Assembly (NCBI GenBank): GCA_040755995.1
Contig: JBFMAF010000026.1
Location: 76,889-140,888 of the forward strand
Direction of reading: 5' to 3'
DNA from: Acidobacteriota bacterium
GTDB lineage: Bacteria > Acidobacteriota > CAIWXX01
DNA: 64,000 nucleotides
Part shown: positions 32,849-62,366 of the stretch, in pieces
Position numbering within the stretch: position 1 is the first letter of the stretch
How the letters are laid out: each line of letters begins with the position of its first letter
The notes under the pieces: generated by a model
The model's database searches: none
Told to the model about the DNA's origin: nothing
The model's input: the letters and a program-made list of their open reading frames with translations, nothing else
Made by a program: the position numbers and the translations under genes

Positions 32849-33155
32849 GTCAAACCTCCTCAGCCGATCCTCTTCGTTCCCTTCATCTGAAATAGGCGAC
32901 AAAAGGCAGCCAAGGGGCTCACCCGCAGGCAACTCCAACAACATCGTCAGAAAACGATACACGTCGTCGCGCCGATCTCCCACCGGCGAGCACCTTCACC
33001 TTCGTCATGGCTTTGACTTTGGATCGGCCTTGTGGCATCGTAATCCGGCATCACGCGAGTCGCTCCGGTGCATGTCCTGAGGCTATGGTGGTCCGGCTAG
33101 TTGGCACGTACGATCCCGTTCCGCCCATAAATTGTGAGGAAAAGGAGTCAACGCA

Positions 33156-36964: not shown

Positions 36965-37184
36965 TTCAAACCTCCTCTGACGATTGTCTTCGTTCCCTTC
37001 ATCAAGAAATGGCGACAAAAGTCAGCCAAGGGGCTCACGGGCTCCTGTTGACCACACACCGCGCCTCGCACGTGACATTGCGCTGCGCGATCGGGATGCT
37101 GCGGCCGGCCAGCCATGAGACAGGCCTATCGGAAGGGTGCTCAACGAGGGCCAGCAGGAGGTGTGGGGGCGATCGCCTTGGCGA

Positions 37185-41699: not shown

Positions 41700-41763
41700 T
41701 GAACGGACGCGTTTCGCCCGGCGGGAGCCTCATGCGGCTCACGCGGTTGAGTCAGGAGGGTCA

Positions 41764-44782: not shown

Positions 44783-47700
44783 TCATCGCTGGCGTTGAGC
44801 GAGGCGATTCTGCTTCCCATACAGGTTCCTCAGAAGCGGATTGAGCTTGAAAGCGCTGTCGAAGGCTTGCTGCGACTGCTCATAAGCCACCTTGGCCTCG
44901 GCGCCGGCACCGCGGCTTTTCAGCAAGAGCAATGAACCGCGAATCGCTTCCGCTTCTCCAGATGCGGCGTTTATTGCGAGAGAGGCAACGGCCGCATCCA
45001 GGCCATTCGCTATCTCGTTGCCCGCATCGTTGCTCTCTTGGATCTTCCACTCCGCCCATCGGAGGTAGATCTCCGCGAGCAGTCTGGAGTGGGCCGCCTC
45101 CTTCTTCTCTTGTACGGCCTGCTCGACGCGCCGGACCGCCCGGCTGAAGTCTGATTCCGGGGGTCGCCCCAGGGAGACCTTCCACTGCGCCTCCAGGAGA
45201 TCAAGAAGTGCCTCGACACGCAACCCGGAGTTGGAATTGGGGAAGAGACGCTGCCCTTCGTCAAGCACTCTGCGGGCTTCGCCCAGCGGCATCTTGGGGG
45301 AACGGTTGCTGCGAAGATCAAATCGCGCCTGAAGAGCGAGGATCTCCGCAAGCTCCGGCCGGGCTTCCATGTTTTCGCTGCTCTTGGCAAGCCCGCGACG
45401 ATAGCTGTCTGCCGCCTGGGCTATGCGCTTGCCCGGGTCGCGGCCTGTCATGTACGCGTATCGCGCCAATCCGAAGTGCGCGAGTCCTTCAGCGAATTCG
45501 GGCAAGCCGTATGCGGGGACGATTGCCTTGGATAGCCGAGCGACGGCCTGCGTGAACTGCACGCTCGGGTCCTCACCCCTGTCGAGTTTGTAGTTGCCGA
45601 GATCGATCAGGGCGAGGGACTCGTTTCGCAGGTCCTCAGCTTGGCCGGTCTCGCTAACCTGATGAAGCAGCTCGACGGCACGGCTGAGTGAACGAGCCGC
45701 ATCGAGCCCATGCTCCGCCTCGTACCGGCCTTTGACAATGTAGGTCGTGCCCAACCTCGAGGCTATCGCTCTTCCTGCAGGATATCGCTTGTGTGCCTCC
45801 TCCAGCCGATCAACAGCCTCGTGGAGCCACGGCAAAGGATCCTCTCCGCGCCACCATGCAATCAAGCCTCGGCTATACAGCCTCTCTCCAAGGTTCACGT
45901 ATGTAAGCATCCATTCCGGTGCCAGTTCTCGGGCGCGCCGCATATCCTCGATCGCCATTTCCTGGGGCGGGATGGCATCGCGACTGCGCATGAAGGCGAA
46001 CTCGGCGAGCCTGGCGAGCAATGCGGACCGCATTATGTAGTTCGAAGGATCATCCGGCTGCAACGCCACTGCTCGATCCGCTTTCTCCAGCGCCTCCTGG
46101 CACAGACCCTCAGCCGCATCGTCCGGCCAGATGGCGGCAGCCTGCCACGACAGCAGCTCGGACGCGACGCGCAACGAGGTCGCACTCTCAGGGTCCAGGC
46201 CGATTGCGCATGCACACTCACCAGCAGCTTCCCCCATTTCGTGCTGGGACGGACGGGCCTCGCGCAGAACAACCTGTGCTCGCAGCATGAGTGAACGTAT
46301 TCTGCACAAGGTGTCATGAACCACAGGACAACTTCGACCTATGCTAGCCGCATCGTGGCCGGCGGCGAGTGCGACCGCGAACTCTTGAGTGGCTCGTCGA
46401 GCATCGTTTTCATCAAACAGCGCCGTGTACCCTTTCTCGAAGTGAACGGTGGCTTTCAGCAAGGGCGCTTCATACAGCCATCTGGATTTCTTTGCGGCCG
46501 CGTCGGCGAGCGTAATAGCCTCGTCCCAGCGCCGTTCGAACAGGGCGATCTGGCCATTGATGAGCTCGGGAAACGTGAGCGAACCACCGCGGCTGCGCCT
46601 CAGTTCCGCAAGCGCAGGCTCACGCAGTTCCCTTGCGGCACGTTTCTCGTCCATGACGCGCAGTTCCGGGCTTCGGGACATTCTGATTGCTGAAATCTCG
46701 CTCTTGTACAGTTCTCCCAATGCGGTGCCAAGCGCATAGGAGACCTCCGGCGTGTGATAGTCCTCTCGTACGGCCGCCTCGAGATGGCTCCTTGCTGCCC
46801 TGAAATCACCCAAGGCCAGTGCGCCGCGCCCGAGGGCCGCATGGCCGGGACCAGCAGCCAGCCCGCCTATCTCTGCCATGCTCGCTTCGAGCGATTTCAT
46901 GCGGCGGCGAACTTCATTCTTGCCCGGCCGGATGTCGTGCGCGGGGCTCAGATACTCCGCTCTCATCAGCCATTCGACGTCTCGAGCTTCTTCTCCGAAA
47001 TGCCGTGCGATTTCTACATGCCTGGCCGCCCGGATGCGCGAAACAAATACCGCAATTCCGGCGGCCAGTAGCACGGCTGCGAATGCGGCGCCTGCGGCGA
47101 TGCGCAGCCGCCTGCGGCGCCGTCGCGCCGGTTTCTCTTGCACCCATCGAAGCTGGGACACAGCCTCGCGAGCCGTCGGGCGTTCGATCGCACGGAGTGC
47201 GGTAAGCTTGCGGATCAGCAACGCGAGATCCGGATCGATCTCACCGATCGGTCCCGTCCGGCCGGCGCGGACTCGGTCCAAGAGCTCCTCTATGGGCAAA
47301 TCATCCGGATAGGCAGGTTTCCCTGTGAATATCTCCTGTAGGAACAACCCGAACGAAAACATGTCACAGGCCGGAGTTACCGGATCACCTTTGATCTGCT
47401 CGGGGCTCATATACCGCAGAGTGCCGAGCGCCGAACCGGCGCGGGTCAGAGTGGTGCGTGTGCCGAGGCCGGCGGCGGTATTCATGGTCCCATCGCGCTT
47501 CGCCTGTTCATCCCGGCCGAGAGGCTCGGTCGTGCCCTCCGATGTGGCCTGACTTCCCGCCGCCGGAGCTGCGGCGAGCAGAAACGGGCTGCATTCCTGA
47601 GCCCCGTTCACGCGCTTTTCTATGCCGCCGTTCCTGCTCACGCTGCGCGCAATTCCAAAGTCCAGGATCTTGACGGCCCCGCGGTTGGTAACCATGACGT

Positions 47701-48385
47701 TGTCGGGTTTGAGATCCCGGTGCACGACATCGGCCTCATGCGCGGCTGACAGGGCCTCGGCGATCTCAATCGAGATGCGTAGCTTCTGGGCCAACGGGAG
47801 TTGCTGGACAGATTCCCCTCGCAGCGTGCGCCCTTCGACGAATTCCAGCACCAGGTAGTCCGCGTCCGGAGCCTCGATGAGATCGTATGCCTGGCAGATA
47901 CTGGGGTGGTTCAATTTCGACAGAGTGCGTGCCTCTCGCAGGAACCGGGCCTTCGATTCGGCACTCAGACGCCTCTCGGCTCGAATCGTCTTGACGGCGA
48001 CCGTTCGTTGGAGTTTCTCGTCGAACCCGCGGTAGACCTCTCCCATCCCGCCGATCCCGATAAGAGCGTCCAGGCGGATGCTGCCGACCCGCGAACCTTC
48101 CAGGCTCTCTGGCGGCCGGCCATCGGAGCTGAGACGCGCCCCCGTCAATGATACGTCCGGACGCACCGCCATCTCACGCCTCAGCTCTTCGATTCCCCGC
48201 TGTGCAGCCTTCTCTATCGGCGCGCCAGACACGTCGTGGCACGCAAGCAGTTCCTGGACCTCCTTCAGCAGGGACTCGTCGCCAGCGCATTCGCGGCGGA
48301 CGAAGGTCAAACGCTCAGCCGGATCACCAATCTCAGCGGCGTTCTCGAAGATGTCCTTGACCCGCTGCCACTGTTCAGGCGTCAT
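44783..48385 (-). CDS. Membrane Ser/Thr protein kinase with TPR-like C-terminal region
   Basis: MTPEQWQRV leader; IGIGGMGEVY, VAVK, VHRDLKPDN, ILDFGIA, GTLRYMSPEQ; one TM helix; helical repeats. Confidence 0.93.
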   Translation of the reverse strand: MTPEQWQRVKDIFENAAEIGDPAERLTFVRRECAGDESLLKEVQELLACHDVSGAPIEKAAQRGIEELRREMAVRPDVSLTGARLSSDGRPPESLEGSRVGSIRLDALIGIGGMGEVYRGFDEKLQRTVAVKTIRAERRLSAESKARFLREARTLSKLNHPSICQAYDLIEAPDADYLVLEFVEGRTLRGESVQQLPLAQKLRISIEIAEALSAAHEADVVHRDLKPDNVMVTNRGAVKILDFGIARSVSRNGGIEKRVNGAQECSPFLLAAAPAAGSQATSEGTTEPLGRDEQAKRDGTMNTAAGLGTRTTLTRAGSALGTLRYMSPEQIKGDPVTPACDMFSFGLFLQEIFTGKPAYPDDLPIEELLDRVRAGRTGPIGEIDPDLALLIRKLTALRAIERPTAREAVSQLRWVQEKPARRRRRRLRIAAGAAFAAVLLAAGIAVFVSRIRAARHVEIARHFGEEARDVEWLMRAEYLSPAHDIRPGKNEVRRRMKSLEASMAEIGGLAAGPGHAALGRGALALGDFRAARSHLEAAVREDYHTPEVSYALGTALGELYKSEISAIRMSRSPELRVMDEKRAARELREPALAELRRSRGGSLTFPELINGQIALFERRWDEAITLADAAAKKSRWLYEAPLLKATVHFEKGYTALFDENDARRATQEFAVALAAGHDAASIGRSCPVVHDTLCRIRSLMLRAQVVLREARPSQHEMGEAAGECACAIGLDPESATSLRVASELLSWQAAAIWPDDAAEGLCQEALEKADRAVALQPDDPSNYIMRSALLARLAEFAFMRSRDAIPPQEMAIEDMRRARELAPEWMLTYVNLGERLYSRGLIAWWRGEDPLPWLHEAVDRLEEAHKRYPAGRAIASRLGTTYIVKGRYEAEHGLDAARSLSRAVELLHQVSETGQAEDLRNESLALIDLGNYKLDRGEDPSVQFTQAVARLSKAIVPAYGLPEFAEGLAHFGLARYAYMTGRDPGKRIAQAADSYRRGLAKSSENMEARPELAEILALQARFDLRSNRSPKMPLGEARRVLDEGQRLFPNSNSGLRVEALLDLLEAQWKVSLGRPPESDFSRAVRRVEQAVQEKKEAAHSRLLAEIYLRWAEWKIQESNDAGNEIANGLDAAVASLAINAASGEAEAIRGSLLLLKSRGAGAEAKVAYEQSQQAFDSAFKLNPLLRNLYGKQNRLAQRQR

Positions 48386-48570: not shown

Positions 48571-49386
48571 TCAGTTCCCGGTTCGAACCACTAGCATCGC
48601 CGTCTGCGCGCGCCTCAGAACGCTCGCAACGGTTCTCACGCTGACAGTTCTACCGGTCGTGCGCCCGGTTGGCGCTCCGGCAATCACGATCTCCACCCGC
48701 CGCTCCTTCGCGAGCGCCGCCACTGCGGCGTCGACTGTGTTCGCAATGACGGTCCGGGCTACGCTGACATCGACCCGACCGGCCATCCGTTCGAGCTCTG
48801 CCGCATGCTCCAGGCCACGCTCCACACTCGCCGGAATCGGCAGGATGTCGAGTATGGCGCCATACGCTCTGGCGAGAGCGATAGCGACCAGGCCGGCCGA
48901 GACGCTCGACGGAAGCCCGTCGGTCATGAGCGCGACCCGCTGCCACTCGAGTTCAGGACGCTCGGGAAGCAGAAGCAGGTTCCGTCGCGACGACCTCAAG
49001 GTCTGAGCTGCGACCGAAGCGAGCAGCGGCCAGCGACGGCGCGCGAGCCTGCCTGCGCCCATCACGACCAGATCGCAATCGTGCCGATCGGCGAAGTCTA
49101 CGATGACCGGAGCAGGATCGCCCCTCTCATCGTAGAAGGCGACATCGACCCCTTCGGCACTCGACACGCCTTCAACCATGCGGCGGGCGCTGGCGCATGG
49201 TTCTTCGAGCAGGCGTCCAACATCTCCTGCACCGAACAGCCTGAGATCGCCCTCGTAGCGCGGCGCCACACACATCGCGAGCAGCTTCGCGCGTTCCGCC
49301 CGCGCCAGCCTGCATGCTTCCCGGAATGCGGTGCGGCTGCCGGCAGATCCGTCCACCGCGGCCAGGATCTTCTTGAACAGCGACAC
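48571..49386 (-). CDS. Tandem universal stress protein
   Basis: FKKILAAVDGS, GDPAPVIVD...DLVVMGA; second, degenerate USP domain. Confidence 0.88.
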   Translation of the reverse strand: MSLFKKILAAVDGSAGSRTAFREACRLARAERAKLLAMCVAPRYEGDLRLFGAGDVGRLLEEPCASARRMVEGVSSAEGVDVAFYDERGDPAPVIVDFADRHDCDLVVMGAGRLARRRWPLLASVAAQTLRSSRRNLLLLPERPELEWQRVALMTDGLPSSVSAGLVAIALARAYGAILDILPIPASVERGLEHAAELERMAGRVDVSVARTVIANTVDAAVAALAKERRVEIVIAGAPTGRTTGRTVSVRTVASVLRRAQTAMLVVRTGN

Positions 49387-49517: not shown

Positions 49518-50324
49518 TTAGCGTGTGTAGAGCGACATCGGGGCGACCTTGACGGACACCGTCTTGACCCCACGAACCGCAGCTGCCGTGCTCTCTATCT
49601 CTCCGCCGGCGTCCATCTGCTGGGGCAGCGCCTTCACTCTGACGACGACGTTGCCGTCGTCGGCGGATACCTCGAGGTGCGGGTTCAAGGTCATCAGGGC
49701 GGCCTTCACATCAGCAGCCAGTGAGAGATCGGAGATGGCTTTGAGCGACTGCGGTGTAGTGCGAAACCTGTCGAGCTTGACCGTGTCACAGATCAGTTCG
49801 GCGGCATCGTCCACCGTCAGGTGCCGGATATGCACCACGAGATCGTAGAGGCTGGAATCGTTGGTGTCGATGCCGTAGAGTGAGAGGCTCCATTTCCTGC
49901 GCTGCTCGTCGTCTTTCTCGATGGTGCGGCGTGCCTCAATATAGTCAGTCTTCTCTCGCTCCATCTCCGTGCGGATCCGGTCTTCGAGGTCGGCGATGAT
50001 GCGCACCTTGAGCACGTGCGCAACTCCGGGCACGAAGAAATGCCCGGCCAGCCCATGGTAGACGATGTTGTCCTCTTTCAGGTATCTCAGCAGCGCCGCC
50101 TGAATATACGCGACATAGCTCTCCCTGCCGTACGTGAAGCGATCGAGGATTGACGGAGCGTCGTGGATGGCGCGGACCAGTTTCACCTCCGGAATGTTGA
50201 ACAGCTCTGACGCATCCAGCAGGATGTCGCGCGAGATGCAGTCATAGCCGAGCTTGCCGGCCACCTTTTCGGCAACGTCCTTCCCCCTGCTGTAGGACCC
50301 GCGTGAGATTGTAACGATCGCCAT
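49518..50324 (-). CDS. Cytidylate-kinase-like family protein with C-terminal BON-like domain
   Basis: AIVTISRGSYSRGKDVAEKVA, YHGLAGHF, LKVRIIA, YDLVV; C-terminal AAAVRGVKTVSV. Confidence 0.85.
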   Translation of the reverse strand: MAIVTISRGSYSRGKDVAEKVAGKLGYDCISRDILLDASELFNIPEVKLVRAIHDAPSILDRFTYGRESYVAYIQAALLRYLKEDNIVYHGLAGHFFVPGVAHVLKVRIIADLEDRIRTEMEREKTDYIEARRTIEKDDEQRRKWSLSLYGIDTNDSSLYDLVVHIRHLTVDDAAELICDTVKLDRFRTTPQSLKAISDLSLAADVKAALMTLNPHLEVSADDGNVVVRVKALPQQMDAGGEIESTAAAVRGVKTVSVKVAPMSLYTR

Positions 50325-50404
50325 GATCAAGTTCCTCCTGCTACCCGGTAGGTCCCGGCGAGCTGACTGGGCTCAGGCAGGCGCGTAGAAGGGGAGGTCG
50401 TCAC

Positions 50405-51484
50405 CTACCCGAGTCCGACCTCCGCATTGGCATAGTCTTCCTGCGCCGCGCGAGCCGCCCTGCTCGCCTTCCACATGCTTCCGAGAATAATGAGTGCTCC
50501 TACCGCCAGCGCGATGCACATGGTGACGAAGCTGACGATGTCGGCAATGTGGACGGTTCTCTCGGAGAAGCCTGCCAGGCCGAGTTTGCTGAGGTACTTC
50601 GGCATTGCCAGCGCGCGGCTAAGAGCAACGATCAGCATGATCGTCCCCATCACCACCTTGATCACATGCTCCTTGACGATCGTCGTCCCTATGGCGCCGA
50701 GCTGCACCCCGAGAAGCGAGCCGCCCAGGATGATGAGAACCAGACGGATGTCAATCAAGCCGTGCATCGCCCAGTTGATCGAGCCGCCGAATCCCATCAC
50801 GAAGGCCACCACCAGTTCGGTGGCCGACGCGATCAACGGCGAGGCTCCCATCACGTATATCATACCCGGCACGCCGATGAAGCCGCCAACGGCAATCGTC
50901 GCGGCCAGCATCCCAGTTGCAAAGCCGACGGGAAGGATGAACCAGAGCGAGATACGCATGTTGGCTGTCTTGAAGTGCACCATCGGGGGCAGGCGAATCG
51001 CCTGCAGCCGCAACGCCAGCGCCGCGGTGCCCCGATCCAGCCCGGTCTTGAGAGACTTGCGTGCATCGTGAAACACATACCCGCCGACCGTCACAAGCAC
51101 GGCTACAAAAGCACAGCTCACGTACAGGTCGGAGCCGGCCTGCCCCCACCTTTCGAGAACCAACTGCTGCACCTTGATGCCCACCTGCACGCCGATCGCC
51201 GCGAACGCGGCCACCGTCAGGCCCAGCTTGATGTCGACCTGCCCATACTTGTAGCGCTTGATGGCACCGACGAGCGCCTTCGGAAACTTGTGGCACATGT
51301 TGGTGGCCACGGCCACGGCCCCGGGGACTCCGAGGCTCATCATCCCGGGCGTCAACACAAAGGCGCCCCCGGATCCGATGAAACCGCTGACAAGCCCCCC
51401 GATGAAGCCGACGACGAAGAGGAACAGGACGTTGAGCAGGTTCAGGTCAATGAACTGGATCGCATTACTCGCAACTTCGTGCAT
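50405..51484 (-). CDS. TauE/SafE-family (TSUP) sulfite/anion exporter
   Basis: GFIGGLVSGFIGSGGAFVLTP, AVGGFIGVP; 8-9 TM helices. Confidence 0.9.
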   Translation of the reverse strand: MHEVASNAIQFIDLNLLNVLFLFVVGFIGGLVSGFIGSGGAFVLTPGMMSLGVPGAVAVATNMCHKFPKALVGAIKRYKYGQVDIKLGLTVAAFAAIGVQVGIKVQQLVLERWGQAGSDLYVSCAFVAVLVTVGGYVFHDARKSLKTGLDRGTAALALRLQAIRLPPMVHFKTANMRISLWFILPVGFATGMLAATIAVGGFIGVPGMIYVMGASPLIASATELVVAFVMGFGGSINWAMHGLIDIRLVLIILGGSLLGVQLGAIGTTIVKEHVIKVVMGTIMLIVALSRALAMPKYLSKLGLAGFSERTVHIADIVSFVTMCIALAVGALIILGSMWKASRAARAAQEDYANAEVGLG

Positions 51485-51590: not shown

Positions 51591-52469
51591 CTACAGTCTG
51601 TGCCACGGATTGATATAAGCGTATGCGCGAGGCCTCTTGGCGGGCCGTTTCCTCACGACCTGCGATTCGCGCTTCTGTTGGAAACCGCTCTTCCTGGCCT
51701 CTATTCCCAACGCGGACCATAGATGGCTGGCAAAGCTCCCGTGTACCGCGGAAAATATGAATGCAGTCGTAATGGGGAACGCCGCATACCAGCCGCCTTT
51801 CGTGAAGTAGGGCATGAGCGAGTCCGCTCCCGCGAACAACACTCCGTAGAGGCCCACAGATCCCAGGCCGAGCGCCACGGTTCTTGCGATCAACGAATTG
51901 CGTGATGACCTCGACTCCTCAACCATTCCCGTTCCTCCTTTCGGATCGTCCCGTAGTCCACCTGCCCGCCTGGTCGAGCGGACCGGTGTTATGCTGTAGA
52001 CGGGAACCGGCACGTGAAATCCGATCTCGTCCTTGTCTTCTTCCGAGCCCGTGATGACCAGCTCGATGCGCTTGTGCGCGCGGAAAGTTCTCTCGATCGC
52101 GCTGCCCAACTCCTCGCTAGCGACTTCGCGCCGGCAGAGTATTCCCCTCGCCGCGGCGCTGCTGCACAGATTTTCCACTCCGACAGCTGGACCGCCAATG
52201 CCCTTGCGATGATCGTGCAACGGTCGATCCGCGTTCCCTCTCACGAGGAGAGCGATGATGCCGTAATTGAGCCTCTCCGCCAGATCGATCGAGTAGTCGG
52301 CCACACAATCCGAAAGGCGGTCCGAGTTGGCGACGACCAGTATCTTCGGCCGCAGCCCACCAGGCAGCTCAGCCACCGGGCTCGCCGGCCGATCACCCGC
52401 GGCTGGTGCCGCCGGGCTGGCTGTTCCATTTCTTCTCGACAACATCAATCGCCTGAGCATGGTGTACAT
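51591..52469 (-). CDS. Hypothetical: USP-like soluble domain fused to a small 2-TM domain
   Basis: KILVVANS...DYSIDLAERL; in-frame internal ATG at 51926 with SD AAGGAGG; TM part GGWYAAFPI...VHGSFA. Confidence 0.65.
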   Translation of the reverse strand: MYTMLRRLMLSRRNGTASPAAPAAGDRPASPVAELPGGLRPKILVVANSDRLSDCVADYSIDLAERLNYGIIALLVRGNADRPLHDHRKGIGGPAVGVENLCSSAAARGILCRREVASEELGSAIERTFRAHKRIELVITGSEEDKDEIGFHVPVPVYSITPVRSTRRAGGLRDDPKGGTGMVEESRSSRNSLIARTVALGLGSVGLYGVLFAGADSLMPYFTKGGWYAAFPITTAFIFSAVHGSFASHLWSALGIEARKSGFQQKRESQVVRKRPAKRPRAYAYINPWHRL

Positions 52470-52506
52470 CTAACCTCGCCGATCCGTTCCCCTCCGAGCC
52501 TACCTT

Positions 52507-52522
52507 TGCAAACTAGGTGCCA
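52507..52522 (-). promoter_or_regulatory. Sigma54 (-24/-12) promoter
   Basis: TGGCACCTAGTTTGCA, exact GG-N10-GC spacing, 37 nt upstream of ATG 52469. Confidence 0.85.
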
Positions 52523-52576
52523 GCACTAACTCCCTTGCGGATCAAGACGTTGCGTCCCCCAGCGGCTGCTGGCGCT

Positions 52577-52679
52577 GTTGCCATATGCAGCGACGCGAGG
52601 GCGAATGAGGCTAATTCCTTGATTTGCAAGGCCTTCGCTGCTATTGCATCGACATTTGCCAGCGTTGCATCTCGCAACG
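52577..52679. promoter_or_regulatory. IHF site and putative enhancer (UAS) palindromes
   Basis: AATCAAGGAATTA on the minus strand (52612-52624) fits WATCAANNNNTTR; CGTTGC-N5-GCAACG at 52663-52679; GTTGC-N5-GCAGC at 52577-52591. Confidence 0.6.
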
Positions 52680-52767
52680 TCAGGAATGCGATGACGACGC
52701 TTGCGTGGCCTTTCGATTTGACCTATAAGAGGACTATCCCGGAAGGGGACCGCACCGAGGAGCAGAG

Positions 52768-54792
52768 ATGGGTCTATTCAAGAAGGACGAGCCCCAGGAA
52801 GTGGAGCAGGCGCCACGGCCCGACACGGCGATCGCGGAGCTCCGGGGCAGCCTGGAGAGGGCTAGGCTGCCTGAGACAGCGGCCGTTGTTGCGGCCAGGG
52901 AGCTTCAAAAGCTGGAGAAGACTGAGGCCGGCACACCGGAGTACACGATCGCAGTGAACTACCTGGAGTATCTGGCGGCGCTGCCCTGGAACCGCTTCAC
53001 AGAGGACAACCTGGACATGAAGCGCGCCGAGGCGCTGTTGGAGTCGAGGCATCACGGGCTGGCGCACGTGAAGGAGCGAATCCTGGAGTATCTGGCCGTC
53101 CGGACCCTGTATAGCCTTCGCACGTCACACATACTCGTCGTAGACGACGAGGAAATCGCCCGCAACAACCTCGAGCACGTGCTGCGGAAGGAAGGCTACA
53201 AGGTCACCACTGCGGGCAACGGCCGCGAGGCTCTGGAGAAGGTGAAGGAAAACGAGTTCGACATCGTCCTGACGGATCTCAAGATGGAGAAGATGGACGG
53301 GATGCAGCTGCTGGCCTCGCTCAAGCAGGTGGCGCCTCACTCGCGGGTGGTGATGATCACCGGCTACGCCACGGTCGCCTCCGCAGTGGACGCCCTGAAG
53401 CAGGGGGCTGCCGACTACCTGCCCAAACCGATCAACCTCGACGAGCTGCGCGCGGTCGTGCGCCAGATCCTCGAGAAGCGGCGCCACCTGCAGCTATCGA
53501 AGAGTCCTCTGTTGTGTTTCTCGGGGCCGCCTGGCACGGGCAAGACGTCGATCGGCCAGTCGATTGCGGAGGCGTTGGAGCGGAGGTTCGTGCGGATTTC
53601 GGTGGCGGGGCTGCGGGATGAGGCTGACATGCGAGGCCATCGAAGAACGTACGTGGGGGCGATGCCGGGGAGGATCATCAACGAGATCAAACGCATTGAC
53701 GTCCGGAACCCGGTATTCATGCTCGACGAAATCGACAAAGTGGGGCAGGACTTCCGCGGCGATCCCGCCTCGGTTCTGCTGGAGGTGCTCGATCCGGAGC
53801 AGAACAGCCGCTTTGTCGACCACTACCTGGATGTACCCTTCGATCTATCCGGCGTCATGTTCATCGCCACCGCGAACATCGTGGAAAAACTGCCGGACGC
53901 GCTGCGTGACCGGCTGGAAGTGATACCGTTCCCGGGATACACGGAATCGGAGAAGCAGAAGATCGCGAGACAGTATCTCATACCTCGCCAGTCGAGGGAG
54001 CACGGCCTGCCGCTTCAGGAGGTAGACTTCACCGACGGGGCCGTCGTCAAGCTCATCCGCGAGCACACGCAGGAGGCCGGCGTGAGAAACCTGGAAAGAG
54101 AGATCGCGACCATCCTCCGGAAGCTGGCCCGGCGGCAGTTGCGCGGCGATAGGGACACGGGTCGGACGCAGATCGATGAGGCGTTGGTCGAAGCCCTGTT
54201 GGGGCCACGCAGGTTCACTCACGATACCATCAGCGGTGCGAACCGCACGGGAGTAGCTACCGGGCTCGTCTGGACGGAGTTCGGTGGTGAGATCGTCTTC
54301 GTCGAGACGACCATGATGAAAGGGAGCCAGCAGCTCATCTTGACCGGCTCTCTCGGGAGTGTACTGCGCGAGTCGGCCCAGACGGCGCTGAGCTATATTC
54401 GAAGTCGCGCGAGCGATTTTGGGGTCGATCCTGATTTCTTCAGGGGGCACGACATTCACGTCCATATTCCCGCGGGTGCAATTCCCAAGGACGGCCCCTC
54501 GGCCGGCCTGACTGTGGCGTTGGCCTTGATCTCACTGCTCACGGGCAGGCCCGCCCGCTGCGATACGGCTCTCACGGGCGAGATAACCCTCAACGGCCGC
54601 ATCCTGCCCATCAGCGGCGTCCGAGAGAAGGTGCTTGCCGCTCAGCGAGCAGGTGTCAGGTGTGTCGTGTTCCCTGCAGACAACGCGGTCGACGTGGCGG
54701 GACTGGACTCGGAGACGAAGGAAGGCGTCGAGGTCATCCTCGCAGGTGAGATTGCCACGCTTCTTGACGTGGTGCTCGTCGCCCCGGCCTGA
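52768..54792 (+). CDS. lon: Lon (S16) protease lacking the N-domain, with an inserted receiver domain
   Basis: HHGLAHVKERILEYLAV, then REC (53128-53475), GPPGTGKT, GHRRTYVGAMPG, MLDEIDK, PKDGPSAG, GVREK. Confidence 0.92.
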   Translation: MGLFKKDEPQEVEQAPRPDTAIAELRGSLERARLPETAAVVAARELQKLEKTEAGTPEYTIAVNYLEYLAALPWNRFTEDNLDMKRAEALLESRHHGLAHVKERILEYLAVRTLYSLRTSHILVVDDEEIARNNLEHVLRKEGYKVTTAGNGREALEKVKENEFDIVLTDLKMEKMDGMQLLASLKQVAPHSRVVMITGYATVASAVDALKQGAADYLPKPINLDELRAVVRQILEKRRHLQLSKSPLLCFSGPPGTGKTSIGQSIAEALERRFVRISVAGLRDEADMRGHRRTYVGAMPGRIINEIKRIDVRNPVFMLDEIDKVGQDFRGDPASVLLEVLDPEQNSRFVDHYLDVPFDLSGVMFIATANIVEKLPDALRDRLEVIPFPGYTESEKQKIARQYLIPRQSREHGLPLQEVDFTDGAVVKLIREHTQEAGVRNLEREIATILRKLARRQLRGDRDTGRTQIDEALVEALLGPRRFTHDTISGANRTGVATGLVWTEFGGEIVFVETTMMKGSQQLILTGSLGSVLRESAQTALSYIRSRASDFGVDPDFFRGHDIHVHIPAGAIPKDGPSAGLTVALALISLLTGRPARCDTALTGEITLNGRILPISGVREKVLAAQRAGVRCVVFPADNAVDVAGLDSETKEGVEVILAGEIATLLDVVLVAPA

Positions 54793-54857
54793 GCCGCATG
54801 CTCTGGATCGGAAATGGGCAGGGCGCGCGCCGCGCGCCCCTACGCCTCATCTGGCGG

Positions 54858-54998
54858 TTTGCATTGTGCCCTTTGCATTTCGCGCTCCACACTGTGCACT
54901 CCACGCTCTGCATATTGTTTACATATGGCAATGTGCACGGCGCATGTTCCTTACACTTTGCATTCAGTGCATACCGTGCACTTTGCATGTTGCATTGT
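54858..54998. repeat. AT-richer tract of degenerate TGCA-core repeats
   Basis: Repeated ttgcat/tgtgcac units between the convergent lon and NtrC-type genes. Confidence 0.6.
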
Positions 54999-54999
54999 C

Positions 55000-56349
55000 C
55001 TAGGATTCCATCTTGTATCGTCGGAGCTTTCGCCAGAGCGAGACCCGATCGATTCCCAGCATCTCCGCCGCCCTCGTCTTGTTGCCCTGCACCTGCTCCA
55101 GGACCCACGCGATGTACTCTTTCTCGTTCTCCTCCAGTGTCAGGAAGCGTGAGGGCCCACGGCACTGAAAGCGGAGGCTCAGCTGCTGCAGGTCTGGCGG
55201 CAGGTGGCGGCGTTCGATAATCGGGCCCTCTGCCAGCGCCACAGCCCGCTCGATCACATTCTCCAGCTCGCGCACGTTGCCCGGGAACTCATAGGACATG
55301 AGCGTCTGCATCACATCATCGGCGACGCGGTCGATCCGTTTGGCCTGAGCCAGGGAGAACTTCTGAATGAAGTGCTGGACGAGCAGTGGAACGTCGTCGT
55401 TTCGTTCGGCAAGCGAGGGGACGCGAATTGCGAAGATGTTGAGACGATAGTACAGGTCCTGGCGGAACGCACCCCTCTCGACTTCCAGCTTGAGATCCTT
55501 GTTGGTCGCGGCTATCACACGGATATCTACGGCGATCTCGTCGGTCGCCCCTACGCGCATGAGTCGCTTCTCCTGCAGCACTCGAAGCAGCTTGACCTGC
55601 ATGGACTGGGGCATTTCTGCGATCTCGTCCAGGAACATGGTCCCGTCGCTGGCGGCTTCCAAGAGCCCCTTCTTGACGCTGCGGGCCCCTGTGAACGCCT
55701 CGCGCTCGTGGCCAAACAGCTCGTTTGCCAGCAGCTCCTCGGAAAAGGCGCCGCAATTGACGGCGAGGAAGCGACGGGCGGAGCGGCTGCTGAGCTGATG
55801 AACCGTCTTCGCCACCAGCTCCTTGCCCGTCCCGGTCGCTCCAAGTATCAGGACTGTGCAGTCGGTCGCGGCGACCTGCGCGATGCTCTTCTTGAGAGCC
55901 TCCATAGGAGGGCTGCTGCCGACCAGATTGTCGATCTCCTTCCGCACTTCCTGCCTGAGCTGTGTGACTTCACGGCGGAGGGCACGCCGCTCGACCGCCC
56001 TGCGGGCGACGATCCTGACTTCGTCGATTTCGTAAGGCTTGGGGATGTAGTGATACGCGCCTTTGTGCATCGCCTCCACAGCCGAGGCCACCGTCGCGTA
56101 TCCCGTGATCACGATGACCTCGGTGTCCGGCCAGAGCTGCTTCGCCCGTTCCATGACCTGCATCCCGTCGAAGTCCGGCATGCGCAGGTCGGTGAACACA
56201 AGATCGAACTCCGCGCTCTCCAGCTCCCGGATAGCAGCCGCTCCACCCGCTGCCGTTACCGTCGCATAACCTTCTTTGCGGAGGACATGATCCAGATTCT
56301 CGCGCGCGATTGCCTCGTCTTCTACGATCAGTATGCGAGGCGGGTCCAC
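55000..56349 (-). CDS. Sigma54-dependent NtrC/Fis-family response regulator
   Basis: REC; GATGTGKE, ELFGHEREAFTGA, FLDEI, FRQDLYYRL, PGNVRELEN; HTH NKTRAAEMLGI. Confidence 0.96.
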   Translation of the reverse strand: MDPPRILIVEDEAIARENLDHVLRKEGYATVTAAGGAAAIRELESAEFDLVFTDLRMPDFDGMQVMERAKQLWPDTEVIVITGYATVASAVEAMHKGAYHYIPKPYEIDEVRIVARRAVERRALRREVTQLRQEVRKEIDNLVGSSPPMEALKKSIAQVAATDCTVLILGATGTGKELVAKTVHQLSSRSARRFLAVNCGAFSEELLANELFGHEREAFTGARSVKKGLLEAASDGTMFLDEIAEMPQSMQVKLLRVLQEKRLMRVGATDEIAVDIRVIAATNKDLKLEVERGAFRQDLYYRLNIFAIRVPSLAERNDDVPLLVQHFIQKFSLAQAKRIDRVADDVMQTLMSYEFPGNVRELENVIERAVALAEGPIIERRHLPPDLQQLSLRFQCRGPSRFLTLEENEKEYIAWVLEQVQGNKTRAAEMLGIDRVSLWRKLRRYKMES

Positions 56350-56380: not shown

Positions 56381-57862
56381 TCACAGGATCAGAGACCCCG
56401 GGTCCGTCATCTCGGAGGCGGGCTCGGTGGGTGTGAGACTCGGGCGCAGCGGCAGTCTGATGGTGAAGCGAGTACCCTCGCCCTGCTTGCTCTCCACGGT
56501 TATCGTCCCCTGATGGCGCTGGATGATACCATAGACGATCGAGAGCCCCAATCCGGTGCCGGAGCTCACATCTTTGGTCGTGAAGAACGGATCGAAGATG
56601 CGCGGGAGGTCCTTGTCGGCGATGCCGATGCCCGTGTCTTCCAGCGTGATGACGGCCTGGTCCTGGGCGGCATCCGTGGATGCGTGGATGCGGACCTGGC
56701 CCGGAGGGGATTCGATTGCCTGGATGGCGTTCATCAACAGGTTCAGGAACACCTGCTGCATGCGCTGTGAGTCCAGGTACAGCATCATCTCCTTCGGGAC
56801 TTCCCTGAGCAGGTCGACACCGGGCGGCAATTGGCTCGATATCAATCTCACCGAGCTCTCCACCACCTCCCACAGCGACGCCCGGTTGAGCGCGAACTCC
56901 TTGACCCTGGAGAACTCAAGAAGGCCCCGCACGGTGTCGCGCGCCCTCCGGACCTCCTGCTCGACATTCGCGAGCATCTTTCGGAGAAACGGGGCGTCGC
57001 CGTGGCCGAGCTCCTCGATGAGTATCTGGCAGGAGGTGGAGATGTTGTTTAGCGGGTTGTTGAGCTGATGGGCGATGCCCGAAGTGAGGATTCCGAGCGA
57101 CGAGAGCTTCTTGGCCTGGAGAAGCTGATCCTGTCGCTTCTGGAGCTCCATGACCATGCGATTGAATACCTCGACCACGCGTTGCGTCTCGTCACCGGAA
57201 TCTACGACCGGCAGGAGACTAAAGTGACCTTGAGCTATGCGGTGCGTCGTCTCCTCGATCGCTCTCAGTGGTCGTATGATCCCTCTGGCAACCACCGGAA
57301 TGAGGAAGGCGCTCAGGCCGAGGAACACGAGCAACGAGTAGAGGAGGTGGGCCTTGAGCGTCCGGATGATCGTCAGCACTTTCTCCCGTTCGAAGCTCAC
57401 CAGCTCTTGTGCGATATCCACCATGGTCTTGCCGGTCTCCCGCAGACGCTCCTCCACGTGCTCCGCGCACAGCCTGTCCGACCGCTCGCGGCAGCCCTGT
57501 ATCTGCTGCATCAGGTTGCGATACTCGTAGAAATCGCTCTGGAGCACGTCCAGTCGCAGAGCCCCCTCCACGTCCGCTATCTCCGGCTCGATCGAGTCGA
57601 GCACCTCGATGCCTTTCTGCACGTACCGGCTGTTCTCGTCCAGATCGCTCTGCATGCCATATAACAGGTAGTTCTTCTCGTACCGGCGCGCCTCCAGAAT
57701 AACGTTGCTGAGGTCGTCCGCGATCTCTACTATGCGCTGGTTGCGTTCCACCTGCCTCAGGTAGTCGTACGAAAGCGCCCCGATCGAACCGATGAGGATA
57801 ACCGCCAGCGTGAGCGCACCCGCGACCTTCTGCCTGATGTTCAGACGGAGCCTTGATCGCAT
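56381..57862 (-). CDS. HAMP-domain sensor histidine kinase (four-helix periplasmic sensor)
   Basis: Two TM helices; HAMP; GIAHQLNNP, LNLLMNA, DTGIGI, GTGLGLSI. Confidence 0.94.
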   Translation of the reverse strand: MRSRLRLNIRQKVAGALTLAVILIGSIGALSYDYLRQVERNQRIVEIADDLSNVILEARRYEKNYLLYGMQSDLDENSRYVQKGIEVLDSIEPEIADVEGALRLDVLQSDFYEYRNLMQQIQGCRERSDRLCAEHVEERLRETGKTMVDIAQELVSFEREKVLTIIRTLKAHLLYSLLVFLGLSAFLIPVVARGIIRPLRAIEETTHRIAQGHFSLLPVVDSGDETQRVVEVFNRMVMELQKRQDQLLQAKKLSSLGILTSGIAHQLNNPLNNISTSCQILIEELGHGDAPFLRKMLANVEQEVRRARDTVRGLLEFSRVKEFALNRASLWEVVESSVRLISSQLPPGVDLLREVPKEMMLYLDSQRMQQVFLNLLMNAIQAIESPPGQVRIHASTDAAQDQAVITLEDTGIGIADKDLPRIFDPFFTTKDVSSGTGLGLSIVYGIIQRHQGTITVESKQGEGTRFTIRLPLRPSLTPTEPASEMTDPGSLIL

Positions 57863-57908: not shown

Positions 57909-59096
57909 TCAGGAGCCGCCGGTCCGAGTGAAGCGGAGGTGCTGATTGACGAACTGTTCGATGTACATGTCGGTGACCGGCTCGTTGAGCAGCACCATGT
58001 CGAGCTGCTTGGTGTAGGCCGTCAGCTTGCCGATCGCCTCCAGCCGCGCCTCCAGGTCCTCCAGCGCCCGCCGGGCCAGAATCGAATCGATCAGGTCGTC
58101 CTTCTGGAACACCCTGAAGCCCATCCGCCTGAGGATCTCGGCTACCAGTCTGATCCGCCGGAGCCTCCGGTCAAGCGCGGCGCCGCCGCCCTTGAAGAAG
58201 AACCGTATGTAGTTCTCGGAAACGCTCTCGCCGGCGTAGGAGTCCACCATGGAGAAATGATACCCCAGCCTGATCGCGAAGTTCGTGTAGTTCCGGGACA
58301 CGACACCGAAGCTCCGTTCTCCCATTCTCCGGATCTGTTCGTCCGGCACAGTCGCCGCGTGGGCCATCATGCCCAGGAATCCACGAGCATCGACCGGCGG
58401 GGGATCGGGCCATTTCATCGAAATCATCCCCTTCAGCAAGGGACGAAACGGCACCGACAGAATATCTTCCGGCGTGGCTTTTTTCAGATCGGGTTTGAGC
58501 CCGCCCCCCATGTCGGAAATCTGCGCGAGGATCGGGATGCCGGCGACCAGGTCCACCGTCCGCTTCGCCTGGACGTGCAGCCCGGATGTAACCTTGACGA
58601 AAAAATAGATCGCCTTCTCGTGTGAGAAGTGCGTGACGTCGTGCAGAGTCCGGCACGACTCGGGCTTGAAATCCGGATCCTCGGGGTCCACAAGATGAAG
58701 AGGGGAGATGTGATGCAGCAGGTCCGGAAGCGCAGGGGGGCCGCCGGATTCCTCCGATCGAGGATTCAACCGCGCTTCCAGCGCACATCGGATCCGTTCG
58801 TCGATCCCGGCGACGATCGAGGGAAGCTGCGGGAATTTCTCCTTGGAGAGCGCATTCAGCCCGTCCACCATGCACACCACATCTCTTGCCAGCTCACCGA
58901 TCGCTCCCGCCAGGCGACCCGGGTCAGGATTGTCCTTCGTAACCAGCGCTTCCTCGATCTCGGCGATCAGCTCCAGCGCGCGGTTGTTCCTCGCGAGTAT
59001 GTCTTGGAACACGCCGCAGGGCTCGACTGCCGCCGCGGGTGTCTCCTCAGCGACCGCAGTTGCGTTCCTCCGAAAGAGCTTCCAGATATCCGGCAT
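57909..59096 (-). CDS. Dikinase-like protein 3: N-terminal helices and C-domain only, no ATP-grasp or swivel
   Basis: FQDILARNNRALELIAEIE; CRTLHDVTHFSHE; NFAIRLGYHF; FFKGGGA, all matching the two full-length paralogues. Confidence 0.85.
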   Translation of the reverse strand: MPDIWKLFRRNATAVAEETPAAAVEPCGVFQDILARNNRALELIAEIEEALVTKDNPDPGRLAGAIGELARDVVCMVDGLNALSKEKFPQLPSIVAGIDERIRCALEARLNPRSEESGGPPALPDLLHHISPLHLVDPEDPDFKPESCRTLHDVTHFSHEKAIYFFVKVTSGLHVQAKRTVDLVAGIPILAQISDMGGGLKPDLKKATPEDILSVPFRPLLKGMISMKWPDPPPVDARGFLGMMAHAATVPDEQIRRMGERSFGVVSRNYTNFAIRLGYHFSMVDSYAGESVSENYIRFFFKGGGAALDRRLRRIRLVAEILRRMGFRVFQKDDLIDSILARRALEDLEARLEAIGKLTAYTKQLDMVLLNEPVTDMYIEQFVNQHLRFTRTGGS

Positions 59097-59371: not shown

Positions 59372-59433
59372 TTGACTGAAATAGGTAATATCATTAGTCT
59401 GATGTTGTCTTAAGATCGTAAGGTTATGACAAC
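59372..59433 (+). promoter_or_regulatory. Putative sigma70 promoter and GntR autoregulatory half-sites
   Basis: TTGACT-N17-TAGTCT (59372-59400); GTTGTC (59404) ... GACAAC (59428) inverted half-sites overlapping the start codon. Confidence 0.5.
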
Positions 59434-60190
59434 CGGACAATCGAATCCACCAACTGAGCCTCTGGACCGTGATCATCACCAGAAGCTGTATGTGCAGCTA
59501 TATGAGGCGTTGAAGCGCAAGATCGAGACAGGGGAGTGGGCGGTTGGATCGCAGATTCCGACCGAGGGCGGGCTCTGCGAGATGTTCAACGTGAGCCGAG
59601 CTACTGTGCGTGCAGCCATGCAGGACCTTGCCCGCCAGGGCTATCTGACTCGCCGGCAGGGCAAGGGTACATTTGTTCAGCGGCGGACGGCATCCGAAGG
59701 TCTCCCGGTACACACGAGCTTCCAGGAGCTGATGCTGGAAGACGCGGCGAAATGCGCCGTCACACTACTGGCGCGCACGGTCATGATGCCGGTGGACGGG
59801 CTGGACGCGGAGCTCGGCATCGCTCCGGACAGGCACGTGATCTACATCAGGCGGCTCTGGGCGATGGCGAACGAGCCGGTGATTCAGCAGGAGGCCTACA
59901 TCCCCTACCAGGCGTGCCCTGCTCTTCTGGAAGCGGAAATCTCAGGTGAGCCGCTGGTGTCGATTCTGGAGCGCAAGCACGGTATCAGGATCACTCGAGT
60001 GAGAACAAGGCTGGATGCGGTCCCGGCCGGCCCGGCGGATCGAAAGGCGATGAAAGTGCACGAAGGGTCCCCGTTGCTGGTTCTGCTCCAGCATTTCTAC
60101 TCCGGCGATACCGCCGTCGCATACGCGCGTTCGATAAAACCGGCTCGAAAACAGAGCCTGCTACTGGACTTCGAAAGGGAATCGGCTTGA
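59426..60190 (+). CDS. GntR-family regulator (HutC/UTRA type)
   Basis: LYVQL...IPTEGGLCEMFNVSRATVRAA...RRQGKGTFV; UTRA-like C-terminal domain. Confidence 0.93.
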   Translation: MTTGQSNPPTEPLDRDHHQKLYVQLYEALKRKIETGEWAVGSQIPTEGGLCEMFNVSRATVRAAMQDLARQGYLTRRQGKGTFVQRRTASEGLPVHTSFQELMLEDAAKCAVTLLARTVMMPVDGLDAELGIAPDRHVIYIRRLWAMANEPVIQQEAYIPYQACPALLEAEISGEPLVSILERKHGIRITRVRTRLDAVPAGPADRKAMKVHEGSPLLVLLQHFYSGDTAVAYARSIKPARKQSLLLDFERESA

Positions 60191-60205
60191 TGAAAGGAGG
60201 AGCCA

Positions 60206-60730
60206 ATGTCTGATACCAAGGTCGTCAAAGATCTGATGATCGGCATCTTCGACTACCCGCATGTACCGTACTGGTTCTCGATCAGCCAGGCAATCAAGAT
60301 CGTGAGGGTATCGTTCCTGGACACCAACAAGTATCCCGAGCCGCTCGCGATCCTCGTCTTTGACCAGAAATACCACCTCCTCGGCACACTCACGCTCCGG
60401 GATATCCTTCGCGGATTGGAACCCAAGTTCCTGAAGGCGACTGTCGGCGGAGCCCATATCGTGGAGGGGGACCAGACGGAGCTCGCGCTCATCTGGGACA
60501 GTCTCTTCGACATCAAGGCGAAGGAGATGGCGGAGAGGCCGGTGAGCGAGATCATGATCCCGGCCAAGCACTTCGTGGAACCGCATGATCCGATCACGAA
60601 AGCCGCGTACCTGATGCTGCAGCATGACCTTGTGCTGCTGCCGGTTCTCGAAGAGAAGCGGAAGTTCGTCGGCTTGGTGCGCATGATCGAGATCTTCGAC
60701 GCGCTCTCGAACGCGATTCTGAAGGAGTAG
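60206..60730 (+). CDS. CBS-domain protein
   Basis: VKDLMI, LLGTLTLRDIL, VSEIMIP, LPVLE..KFVGLVRMIEIF. Confidence 0.88.
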   Translation: MSDTKVVKDLMIGIFDYPHVPYWFSISQAIKIVRVSFLDTNKYPEPLAILVFDQKYHLLGTLTLRDILRGLEPKFLKATVGGAHIVEGDQTELALIWDSLFDIKAKEMAERPVSEIMIPAKHFVEPHDPITKAAYLMLQHDLVLLPVLEEKRKFVGLVRMIEIFDALSNAILKE

Positions 60731-60735
60731 CGGAG

Positions 60736-62250
60736 ATGGCAGAGGAGAAGAGGGCCGTCGAGGGACTGCCTGCGCCGCCTCTCGAAATCACCGTCGCGGT
60801 TCCCACGGTCAAGGTTGACTGGAAGCGGATCCTTTTCATTGCCTTGGGCCTGGCGCTTTTCCTGATTGTCTTCTACATGCCGCCGTGGCCCGACGCCGTC
60901 GACCCGCTGGGCAAGCACTTCACGCTCTCCAAAGAGGGGAAGGCCGCGATCGCGCTGTTCCTGATGGCCGGCACCTGGTGGGTCGCCGAGGTGGTGCCGA
61001 TCGGCGCCACGGCCATTGCGATCGGTGTATTCCAGGTTCTGTTCAACATCCGCCCGGCCAAAGAAGCATTCAAAGATTTCTTTGATCCGTCCGTATGGTT
61101 CATATTCGGATCCGTCGTCATCGGGGCCGCCTTCACCAGGACCGGCCTCACAAAGCGGCTGGCCGTGCAGATGCTCTCGATCGTGGGAGAGCGCACCAGC
61201 ATGATCCTTCTCGGCTCATATCTCGTGACCGCCGGACTGACTCTGGTGATGGCCCACACCGCCGCGGCTGCCACCGTCTTCCCGATCCTCATGGCCACCT
61301 ATGCACTGTACGGCGAAGGCGATCGCAAGACGAAGTTTGGCAAGGCGCTTTTCATCGGGATGGCGTACGCCGCAGGTGCTGGCAGCATCATTACGTACCT
61401 GGGCGCGGCGCGTGGGCCCGCCGCGGCCGGGATGTTCAAGGAGTTCACCGGGCGTGAGATGGGCTTCTTCCAGCTGCCGCTCTACATGCTCCTGATCGCC
61501 GTCGTGATGACCTTCGTCATCTGGGTCAACTTCATGGTCTTCCTGAAGCCGGAGAAGAAGACGATCCCGGGCTTGAAGGAGAAGGTGAAGCATCTTGCGA
61601 GAGAGCTCGGGCCGATGACGATCGGCGAGAAGTTCGTGATCGCAATCGTCGTCCTCGTCGTCCTCCTGATGGGCCTGCAGGCGTTTGTGCCGGCGCTCAA
61701 GACGATCGACCGAGCTGCAATCATGCTGATCGCCACACTGGCGTTCTTCGTGTTCAAGATCCTGACGGTGAAGGAGCTCGAGGAGATCCCGTGGAACATC
61801 ATCCTGCTTTTCGGCGGGGCGATGAGCATCGGCTTCTGCCTGTGGCGAACGGGCGGGGCCGAGTGGCTCGCGATCGAGTGGCTCGGGCTGTTCAAGGATG
61901 CGCCGTGGTTGATATTCGTGCTGAGCGTCGCGTTCTTCGTTCTGATCACGACCAACTTCATCATGAACGTGGCGGCGATCGCGCTGTCGCTGCCGATCTC
62001 TCTAGTTGTGGCGAAGTACATGGGTGTGGCTCCCGAGGTGATCGTATATGCATCACTCGTAACAGCAGGCATGCCGTTCTTGTTGCTCATCGGTGCAGCG
62101 CCCAACGCGATCGCGTACGGCTCGGAGCAGTTCACGGCCGGAGAGTATTTCAAGTACGGATTGATCCCGACGGTGGTGCTGATGGTCGTGCTCGGCATCG
62201 CGATCGTGACAATCTGGCCGCTCTGCGGAATGCCCGTGCTCGTGAAATAG
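60736..62250 (+). CDS. SLC13/DASS-family anion or dicarboxylate permease
   Basis: WWVAEVVPIGATA, TGLTKRLA, IPWNIILLFGGA, GAAPNAIAYGS. Confidence 0.92.
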   Translation: MAEEKRAVEGLPAPPLEITVAVPTVKVDWKRILFIALGLALFLIVFYMPPWPDAVDPLGKHFTLSKEGKAAIALFLMAGTWWVAEVVPIGATAIAIGVFQVLFNIRPAKEAFKDFFDPSVWFIFGSVVIGAAFTRTGLTKRLAVQMLSIVGERTSMILLGSYLVTAGLTLVMAHTAAAATVFPILMATYALYGEGDRKTKFGKALFIGMAYAAGAGSIITYLGAARGPAAAGMFKEFTGREMGFFQLPLYMLLIAVVMTFVIWVNFMVFLKPEKKTIPGLKEKVKHLARELGPMTIGEKFVIAIVVLVVLLMGLQAFVPALKTIDRAAIMLIATLAFFVFKILTVKELEEIPWNIILLFGGAMSIGFCLWRTGGAEWLAIEWLGLFKDAPWLIFVLSVAFFVLITTNFIMNVAAIALSLPISLVVAKYMGVAPEVIVYASLVTAGMPFLLLIGAAPNAIAYGSEQFTAGEYFKYGLIPTVVLMVVLGIAIVTIWPLCGMPVLVK

Positions 62251-62322
62251 GGGAAAGGCGAGAGGGAATAGGGGAAAGGGTGGGGAGGCACGGAGCACCG
62301 AGCACTGAGCGCTGAGCACCGC
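62250..62322. repeat. Purine heptamer repeats followed by (gagcacc/gagcact) heptamer repeats
   Basis: ggggaaa-ggcgaga-gggaata-ggggaaa; gagcacc-gagcact-gagcgct-gagcacc. Confidence 0.6.
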
Positions 62323-62366
62323 GCAGCAGCCACTCTTCCTCACGAGCCAGGACTCACGGAGGGGGC

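Follow-up and report, generated by a model that had tools for sequence, protein, structure and literature searches.

The window, that is, the whole 64,000-nucleotide stretch analysed here, contains a lon gene whose product carries a receiver inside its ATPase module, flanked on one side by genes for a histidine kinase and a sigma-54 activator and on the other by a divergent, leftward operon encoding a transporter and stress-type proteins (Table 1). Because lon lies on the plus strand and the kinase and activator genes on the minus strand, these genes are convergent and do not form one operon. The same convergent layout recurs in 8 of the 15 related loci listed; since gene order varies in the family, co-transcription of lon, kinase and regulator is not treated as a defining feature. 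Of the 15 listed loci, 13 have a divergent TauE gene upstream and 12 a full-length homolog of the activator; 12 have a kinase homolog, partial in one case, and 8 have paired palindromic sites. Homologs of both the kinase and the activator lie no more than 10 kb from the receiver-Lon gene in 12 of the 15; one listed locus, L004, is a 2-kb contig, and L006 lacks these neighbours. In a FastTree phylogeny of the activators, the 14 cognate regulators fall on one side of a branch with support 99, and 16 other enhancer-binding proteins of the genome on the other.

Table 1. Features of the receiver-Lon locus (positions in the window; percentages are identities to the Desulfovibrio vulgaris proteins)
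Feature	Position	Strand	Remarks
Receiver-bearing, N-terminally truncated LonA protease	52768..54792	+	674 aa; DVU3303 ortholog
Three-helix bundle, kept	52819..52980	+	residues 18-71; N-domain and long helix missing; from alignment and model
Inserted receiver	53128..53499	+	residues 121-244, including long α5 helix 224-244
Predicted phospho-acceptor D170	53275-53277	+	
Walker A	53524..53547	+	residues 253-260, right after the strand that follows receiver α5
Catalytic dyad S578 and K621	54499..54630	+	S578 at 54499-54501, K621 at 54628-54630
Sigma-54 enhancer-binding response regulator	55000..56349	-	449 aa; DVU3305 ortholog (53%); EAFTGA for GAFTGA
Membrane histidine kinase	56381..57862	-	DVU3304 ortholog (46%); 2 predicted TM helices, HAMP, HisKA H265, HATPase
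Usp-like domain fused in frame to small membrane protein	51591..52469	-	DVU3301 + DVU3300 homolog
TauE/SafE-family transporter	50405..51484	-	DVU3299 ortholog (70%)
Cytidylate-kinase-like protein	49518..50330	-	part of the leftward operon in some relatives
Universal stress protein	48571..49386	-	positional counterpart of DVU3298
Predicted activator site 1	52577..52591	+	2 mismatches to the published DVU3305 site
Predicted activator site 2	52664..52678	-	1 mismatch; no second match this close in the genome
Predicted sigma-54 (-24/-12) promoter facing the leftward operon	52507..52522	-	consensus match only

The lon reading frame stands as first placed. Pfam resolves its product into Response_reg (residues 122-231, E 8.8e-33), AAA (249-386), Lon_lid (411-461) and Lon_C (469-671), and the protein passes the TIGR00763 lon model at 696.5 bits (cut-off 608.05). 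The original prediction held that the Lon substrate-binding N-domain is absent, that an intact receiver precedes the Walker A strand and that the Walker motifs and the Ser-Lys dyad are preserved; all three points are borne out. No Pfam match to the substrate-binding N-domain exists in the ORF, and in an alignment to the two ordinary full-length Lons of the same genome (stop-to-stop frames of 809 and 802 aa on contig C55) the receiver-Lon sets in at the end of their long helix. Where these have a loop of about 6 residues linking EYLAVR to the pre-Walker A strand, it has about 128 residues instead. The receiver set is complete, with what we take to be the acidic pair (D126, D127), the phospho-accepting Asp (D170) and the remaining signature residues T198, K220 and the switch aromatic Y217. 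On the same assumption about residue roles, which draws on knowledge of the Lon and receiver families, the ATPase is intact: Walker A K259/T260, pore Y295, Walker B D320/E321, sensor-1 N370, Arg finger R382 and sensor-2 R440. The AAA+ module is fused to a Ser-Lys protease (S578, K621) with a PKDGPSAG motif, as in LonA.

If the N-domain is missing from the chain, could it be supplied by another gene? When the first 220 residues of each ordinary Lon served as query, no stand-alone Lon N-domain gene was found in the genome; genome-wide the only matches were the two ordinary Lons themselves, and a split Lon was rejected. The protein shares the three-helix bundle, the AAA+ module and the Ser-Lys protease with canonical LonA (TIGR00763; PDB 4YPL, 7FD4, 6U5Z) but lacks the N-domain and the long helix and has gained the receiver; we class it as a LonA variant truncated at the N-terminus and not as a canonical housekeeping enzyme. 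A laboratory construct offers a parallel to the truncation: the engineered N-domain-less MtaLonA ‘AAAP’ (residues 242-793), likewise a Lon core without the N-terminal region though with no receiver, retains ATPase, peptidase and casein degradation and does not degrade damaged proteins (PMC8087443).

An AlphaFold model of the receiver-Lon (63-row alignment; mean pLDDT 80.9, pTM 0.71) contains a compact, normal (βα)5 receiver, and the last receiver helix, 224-244, ends three residues before strand 248-252 and the P-loop; the model is of a monomer and thus says nothing about the Lon ring. Its top fold matches are LonA structures, and among the 42 matched solved sequences no chain spans both the Lon and the receiver parts.

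Receiver and Lon domains occur together in 120 of 120 homologs (the best 120 of 8000 scored; 67-74% identity, the query itself apart), and D126, D127, D170, T198, K220, K259, T260, Y295, D320, E321, N370, R382, R440, S578 and K621 are each present in all 120, a figure that is flattering because these homologs are the closest relatives. The same receiver and catalytic positions are invariant in the more diverse 63-row alignment A1, which joins 51 of the 120 to 12 GTDB loci and reaches down to 55% identity. Two smaller features emerge from the same best 120 of 8000. The new N-terminus (52768-52785) is conserved (F4 in 120/120, K6 in 119/120, R or K at position 5 in 116/120) and could be a membrane or partner contact; and the Asp of the PKDGPSAG motif (D575, 54490-54492) is Glu in 89 of the 120.

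How widely is the fusion distributed? The original prediction named its confinement to this one assembly as grounds for abandoning the idea. An architecture search returned the 120 of 120 homologs (best 120 of 8000) and at least 15 GTDB loci (L001-L015, among 80 loci kept from at least 599 matches), so the fusion is widespread and this objection fails; five further GTDB loci passed the first filter and proved to be ordinary Lons. Among the matches listed, the named hosts of receiver-Lon loci are mostly Thermodesulfobacteriota-type anaerobes, and the nearest named receiver-Lons also belong to hosts of this type. In a quick tree of the ATPase-protease core, 20 receiver-Lons lie on one side of a branch (SH-aLRT 100) and 75 ordinary Lons on the other, a topology compatible with a single origin of the receiver-Lon; a motif filter left L005, L006, L008, L009, L011, L013, L015 and L092 out of this tree. 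No full-length match was obtained in 40 relatives, the unpublished G025 among them. A junction query detected the fusion in none of 400 genomes from the same phylum, each with 8 candidates scored; run at an unchanged threshold on 5 known carriers, with more candidates scored, it recovered the fusion in all 5. The failure to find the fusion in 400 genomes of the host’s phylum suggests transfer, and this lineage likely received it by transfer. The tetranucleotide profile of the region is ordinary for the bin (72nd percentile).

Which kinase, then, would address the inserted receiver? Most residues that set receiver specificity are on α1, and one is in the β5-α5 loop (PMC2991266). On α1 the Lon receiver is identical to that of the neighbouring activator at 12 of 15 positions (z 6.2); the 184 other receivers average 3.3 and none exceeds 6 (186 were found in the genome). 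The original prediction had stressed motifs shared with the neighbouring NtrC-type activator and unlike the cluster A receivers. This contrast holds: IARxNLxHxLRKEGY and ITGYATVASAV occur together in only two six-frame ORFs genome-wide, Lon and the activator, and the window’s three other receivers match the Lon α1 at 4, 3 and 3 of 15 positions. Elsewhere in the domain the numbers differ: β4-α4 matches at 12/15, where other receivers reach 11, α2-α3 at 17/41, where others reach 19, and the β5-α5 loop at 5/8, a value equalled by other receivers (z 2.1). The concentration of the match on the docking helix argues for selection; the β5-α5 loop is not distinctive, and it differs consistently between Lon receivers and activator receivers.

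The comparison extends to related loci. Across 14 of them, α1 identity averages 9.4/15 (63%), as compared with 47.6/102 (47%) for the rest of the receiver. The within-locus excess on α1 is small, 9.43 versus 8.64, and confounded by kinship; permutation gives p 0.005 for α1 and p 0.03 for the rest of the domain, with 14 pairs among which kin share sequence. Co-evolution of α1 is not counted as proof because of this sharing. The kinase H-box is unique among the 31 H-box-like ORFs of the genome and nearly constant in related loci; in one case, L007, the H-box differs and both receivers differ too. The shared kinase of the original prediction survives with a qualification: the α1 match makes it likely that the neighbouring kinase is common to the Lon receiver and the activator, but the β5-α5 loop is not distinctly matched.

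Descent provides another source of the likeness. In a receiver tree built from 115 columns, 17 Lon receivers are grouped (support 97) and, together with 14 cognate activator receivers, stand apart from 44 other receivers of the genome; the branch joining Lon and activator receivers has SH-aLRT 91 and is not starred. On this topology the likeness is partly shared ancestry, and it is most simply read as a single copying of the receiver from the activator lineage into Lon, with the kinase unchanged thereafter. A recent conversion event between the two genes' receivers was rejected: that of the window’s Lon sits in a group with 16 further Lon receivers (SH-aLRT 97), not with its neighbour. A receiver 57% identical to the Lon receiver also occurs within an 862-aa frame (G044:C209:18948-19295).

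Allowing at most two mismatches, the published DVU3305 site matches the window twice, both times in the 298-bp gap upstream of lon and 87 bp apart, where 0.07 matches would be expected by chance and 1 of 100 shuffles gave two; at up to three mismatches the window yields no further match, with a chance expectation of 1.16. The 7.7-Mb genome has one match at up to one mismatch, the one upstream of lon, and 9 at up to two. The genome encodes rpoN, and the predicted sigma-54 promoter of the activator would serve the leftward operon, not lon. No sigma-54 consensus faces lon within 450 bases upstream, and no sigma-70 consensus was found in 52400-55100.

Judged by sequence, the Lon ORF is the ortholog of Desulfovibrio vulgaris DVU3303, and the system is already in print. 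One of 301 genomes searched (G093) carries both published upstream sites, and its locus (L092) has ORFs at the exact published coordinates of DVU3303, DVU3304, DVU3305 and DVU3299. The two Lons are collinear (53% identity over 666 aa, 8 gap positions), with the same domain order, no N-domain in either, and D189 and S596 of the 702-aa annotated DVU3303 ORF as the counterparts of D170 and S578; the kinase, activator and TauE proteins are also conserved (Table 1). In both loci the activator sites come as a pair, and the target operon, which encodes a TauE-type transporter and Usp-type proteins (DVU3302-3298 in D. vulgaris Hildenborough), is divergent, with a sigma-54 promoter turned towards it and none found facing lon. 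They differ in that the kinase and activator genes here converge on lon from the opposite strand, whereas in D. vulgaris they follow it; the DVU3301 and DVU3300 homologs are one frame here, a cytidylate-kinase-like gene is added, the activator loop reads EAFTGA and not GAFSGA as in DVU3305, and the host belongs to a phylum in which 400 of 400 genomes searched gave no fusion. Placed on L092, this Lon start falls 20 codons downstream of the one annotated for DVU3303, which would shift the published -8 site to -68.

Phosphorylation-dependent proteolysis was proposed for DVU3303 in 2011, in a study that also listed orthologs and the DVU3305 motif (Rajeev 2011; PMC3333781), and DVU3303-3305 are marked as lacking a sigma-54 promoter in a later survey (Kazakov 2015; PMC4641369). 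The earlier statement that no phosphorylation-gated Lon has been characterised is right only if read narrowly as ‘uncharacterised’: phosphotransfer, ATPase or protease biochemistry of a receiver-Lon was not found in the literature searched, which excluded most subscription journals, but the system and the same hypothesis date from 2011. The receiver-Lon is real, conserved and intact, a further member of a described system and not a discovery. What is added here is the α1 specificity argument, the geometry of the insertion, two named residues (D170 and S578) and what looks like a transfer into a phylum with no other fusion found.

Genetic data exist for D. vulgaris. In the fitness study, DVU3303, DVU3304 and DVU3305 show pairwise cofitness above 0.9, and loss of any of the three is beneficial in chlorate, whereas DVU3299 scores -2.3, the opposite sign (Trotter 2023; PMC10102598). 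GC-normalised insertion reads for the wild-type library are 3.16 for DVU3303, 3.58 for DVU3304 and 2.97 for DVU3305, compared with 0.58 for DVU3299, 0.35 for DVU3300, 2.18 for DVU3301, 0.67 for DVU3302 and 1.48 for DVU3298; such counts approximate fitness only roughly, and their reading as fitness is that of this analysis. Lon loss thus resembles kinase loss, as expected of a positive role. DVU3303 is, however, first in an operon of overlapping genes, so its insertions could silence DVU3304-3305 through polarity.

What might the receiver do to the protease? In the mechanism we favour, the kinase very probably phosphorylates D170. Phosphorylation would shift the α4-β5-α5 face and, through α5, modelled as leading into the Walker A strand, would alter the ATPase or hexamer assembly, the phosphorylated Lon being the active form. 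Activation of this kind, allosteric or through assembly, has about an even chance of being right, and we would give the same even chance to the composite proposal that one signal, through a kinase that phosphorylates both Lon and the sigma-54 activator, switches on proteolysis and the TauE/Usp operon together. In favour of activation are the invariant receiver and catalytic residues, the α1 match, the linked kinase and activator genes, the modelled helix that leads up to the P-loop strand, the activity retained by an N-domain-less LonA and the same-sign genetics in D. vulgaris; against it are the possible polarity of DVU3303 insertions, the consistently differing β5-α5 loop and the shared ancestry of the receivers. 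Simple co-activation faces an additional difficulty, since the activator's target DVU3299 shows the opposite sign in chlorate; to explain this requires further assumptions. Without an N-domain, the protease would take no part in bulk quality control, which the two full-length Lons can perform, and its substrates would be a small set of dedicated or disordered proteins: an N-domain-less LonA active on peptides and casein and not on damaged proteins makes a dedicated signalling protease more likely than a housekeeper.

Alternatively, the receiver may be a docking site in place of the lost N-domain. Depending on its phosphorylation, it would present the cognate activator, the kinase or a protein encoded by the leftward operon to the pore, for feedback or to remove an inhibitor, with no allosteric gating of the motor. 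The β4-α4 face mediates receiver dimers, and it also resembles that of the activator, although the near match of another receiver makes this likeness less specific than that of α1. The lack of an N-domain, in the chain or as a separate gene in the genome, would fit a substitute, as would the library reads, in which DVU3301 insertions are enriched like those in lon while DVU3300 and DVU3299 are depleted. Yet degradation of the activator predicts opposite lon and activator phenotypes, which are not seen in the D. vulgaris data, and we consider docking unlikely.

The regulation could also run in the opposite direction, with unphosphorylated Lon active and the kinase shutting the protease off. If the kinase acted mostly as a phosphatase in the conditions tested, the genetics would have to be read the other way round, and sequence does not fix the sign: a LonA lacking the N-domain is active without input (PMC8087443), so the receiver could be either a brake or a brake release. 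Inhibition, however, predicts opposite signs for kinase and lon mutants unless polarity masks them, and the data for D. vulgaris give lon, kinase and activator mutants the same sign, which leaves this direction rather improbable. Is the protease controlled by phosphorylation at all? The receiver might be phosphorylated merely as a phosphate sink or kinase tether, Lon being regulated by transcription only; activator sites upstream of lon here and in D. vulgaris accord with such a role, which would require the same α1 match and invariant residues. But the receiver is placed inside the ATPase, its junctions are conserved (R238, R239, H240 and Q242 at 97-98% in the best 120 of 8000), the α4-β5-α5 output face has a mean column conservation of 0.92 in that set, and a sink predicts a phenotype opposite to that of activator loss; we hold this reading to be quite improbable. 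An assembly artefact or a decaying gene, which the failure to find the fusion in 400 genomes of the host’s phylum might suggest, has next to no probability and is ruled out by independent homologs (120/120 of the best 120 of 8000 with the same domains, at least 15 GTDB loci and DVU3303, all collinear), catalytic residues that are all intact and a tetranucleotide profile in the ordinary range.

Returning to activation, the broader picture would be of an AAA+ protease motor switched directly by aspartyl phosphorylation of an in-chain receiver that was copied once from the activator and stayed with its kinase, so that one sensor has parallel outputs in transcription and proteolysis, in a module that moved between phyla; we judge this picture slightly better than an even bet. 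Receiver phosphorylation controls ATP-dependent proteolysis in the CpdR-ClpXP and RssB-ClpXP systems, where the receivers are separate adaptors for ClpXP, whereas here the receiver is inside the protease chain; NCBIfam gives both names among its receiver hits, at low scores only. The receiver-controlled proteases known to us all use separate adaptors. A review of response-regulator output domains is said to list Lon fusions. If it gates a Lon ring, an in-chain receiver would be a new mode of control for AAA+ proteases and would offer a ready-made plan for one that a kinase can switch. The idea has been in print since 2011, with an organism that has genetics and fitness data at hand; no test of it was found in the literature searched.

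Several features of the surrounding DNA deserve mention. The sigma-54 contact loop of the activator, with its substitution at residue 217, is also EAFTGA in 5 of 13 other cognate activators. The frame that joins the Usp-like domain to the small membrane protein (51591-52469) has a ribosome-binding-site-like sequence and an ATG at the junction; the two parts share a frame in 9 related loci, whereas L092, L013 and L015 have them as separate frames. The TauE gene of L003 (7702-8490) is in three frames, through either a frameshift or a sequencing error. The spacer between lon and the activator gene (54851-55005) is rich in TGCA-type short repeats with weak tandem scores, and no copy of it was found elsewhere in the genome. 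Upstream of the kinase, a 395-aa ORF (57909-59096) has no Pfam or NCBIfam match; several longer proteins of the genome, among them the window’s two PPDK_N/PEP-utilizer proteins, share 30-36% identity with it across about 270-345 aa, and it looks like a stand-alone C-terminal part.

Farther out, a GntR/UTRA regulator, a CBS protein, a DASS anion symporter and an LCIB-type beta carbonic anhydrase are encoded in one run (59426-63080), and a formate-tetrahydrofolate ligase and a P-type ATPase at 40056-44547. Two paralogous LRR-FN3-Ig-TIG proteins map to 31217-32983 and 35330-37018. Adjoining the Usp gene, a 1200-aa Ser/Thr kinase with TPR repeats (44783-48385) has at least five paralogs in the genome.
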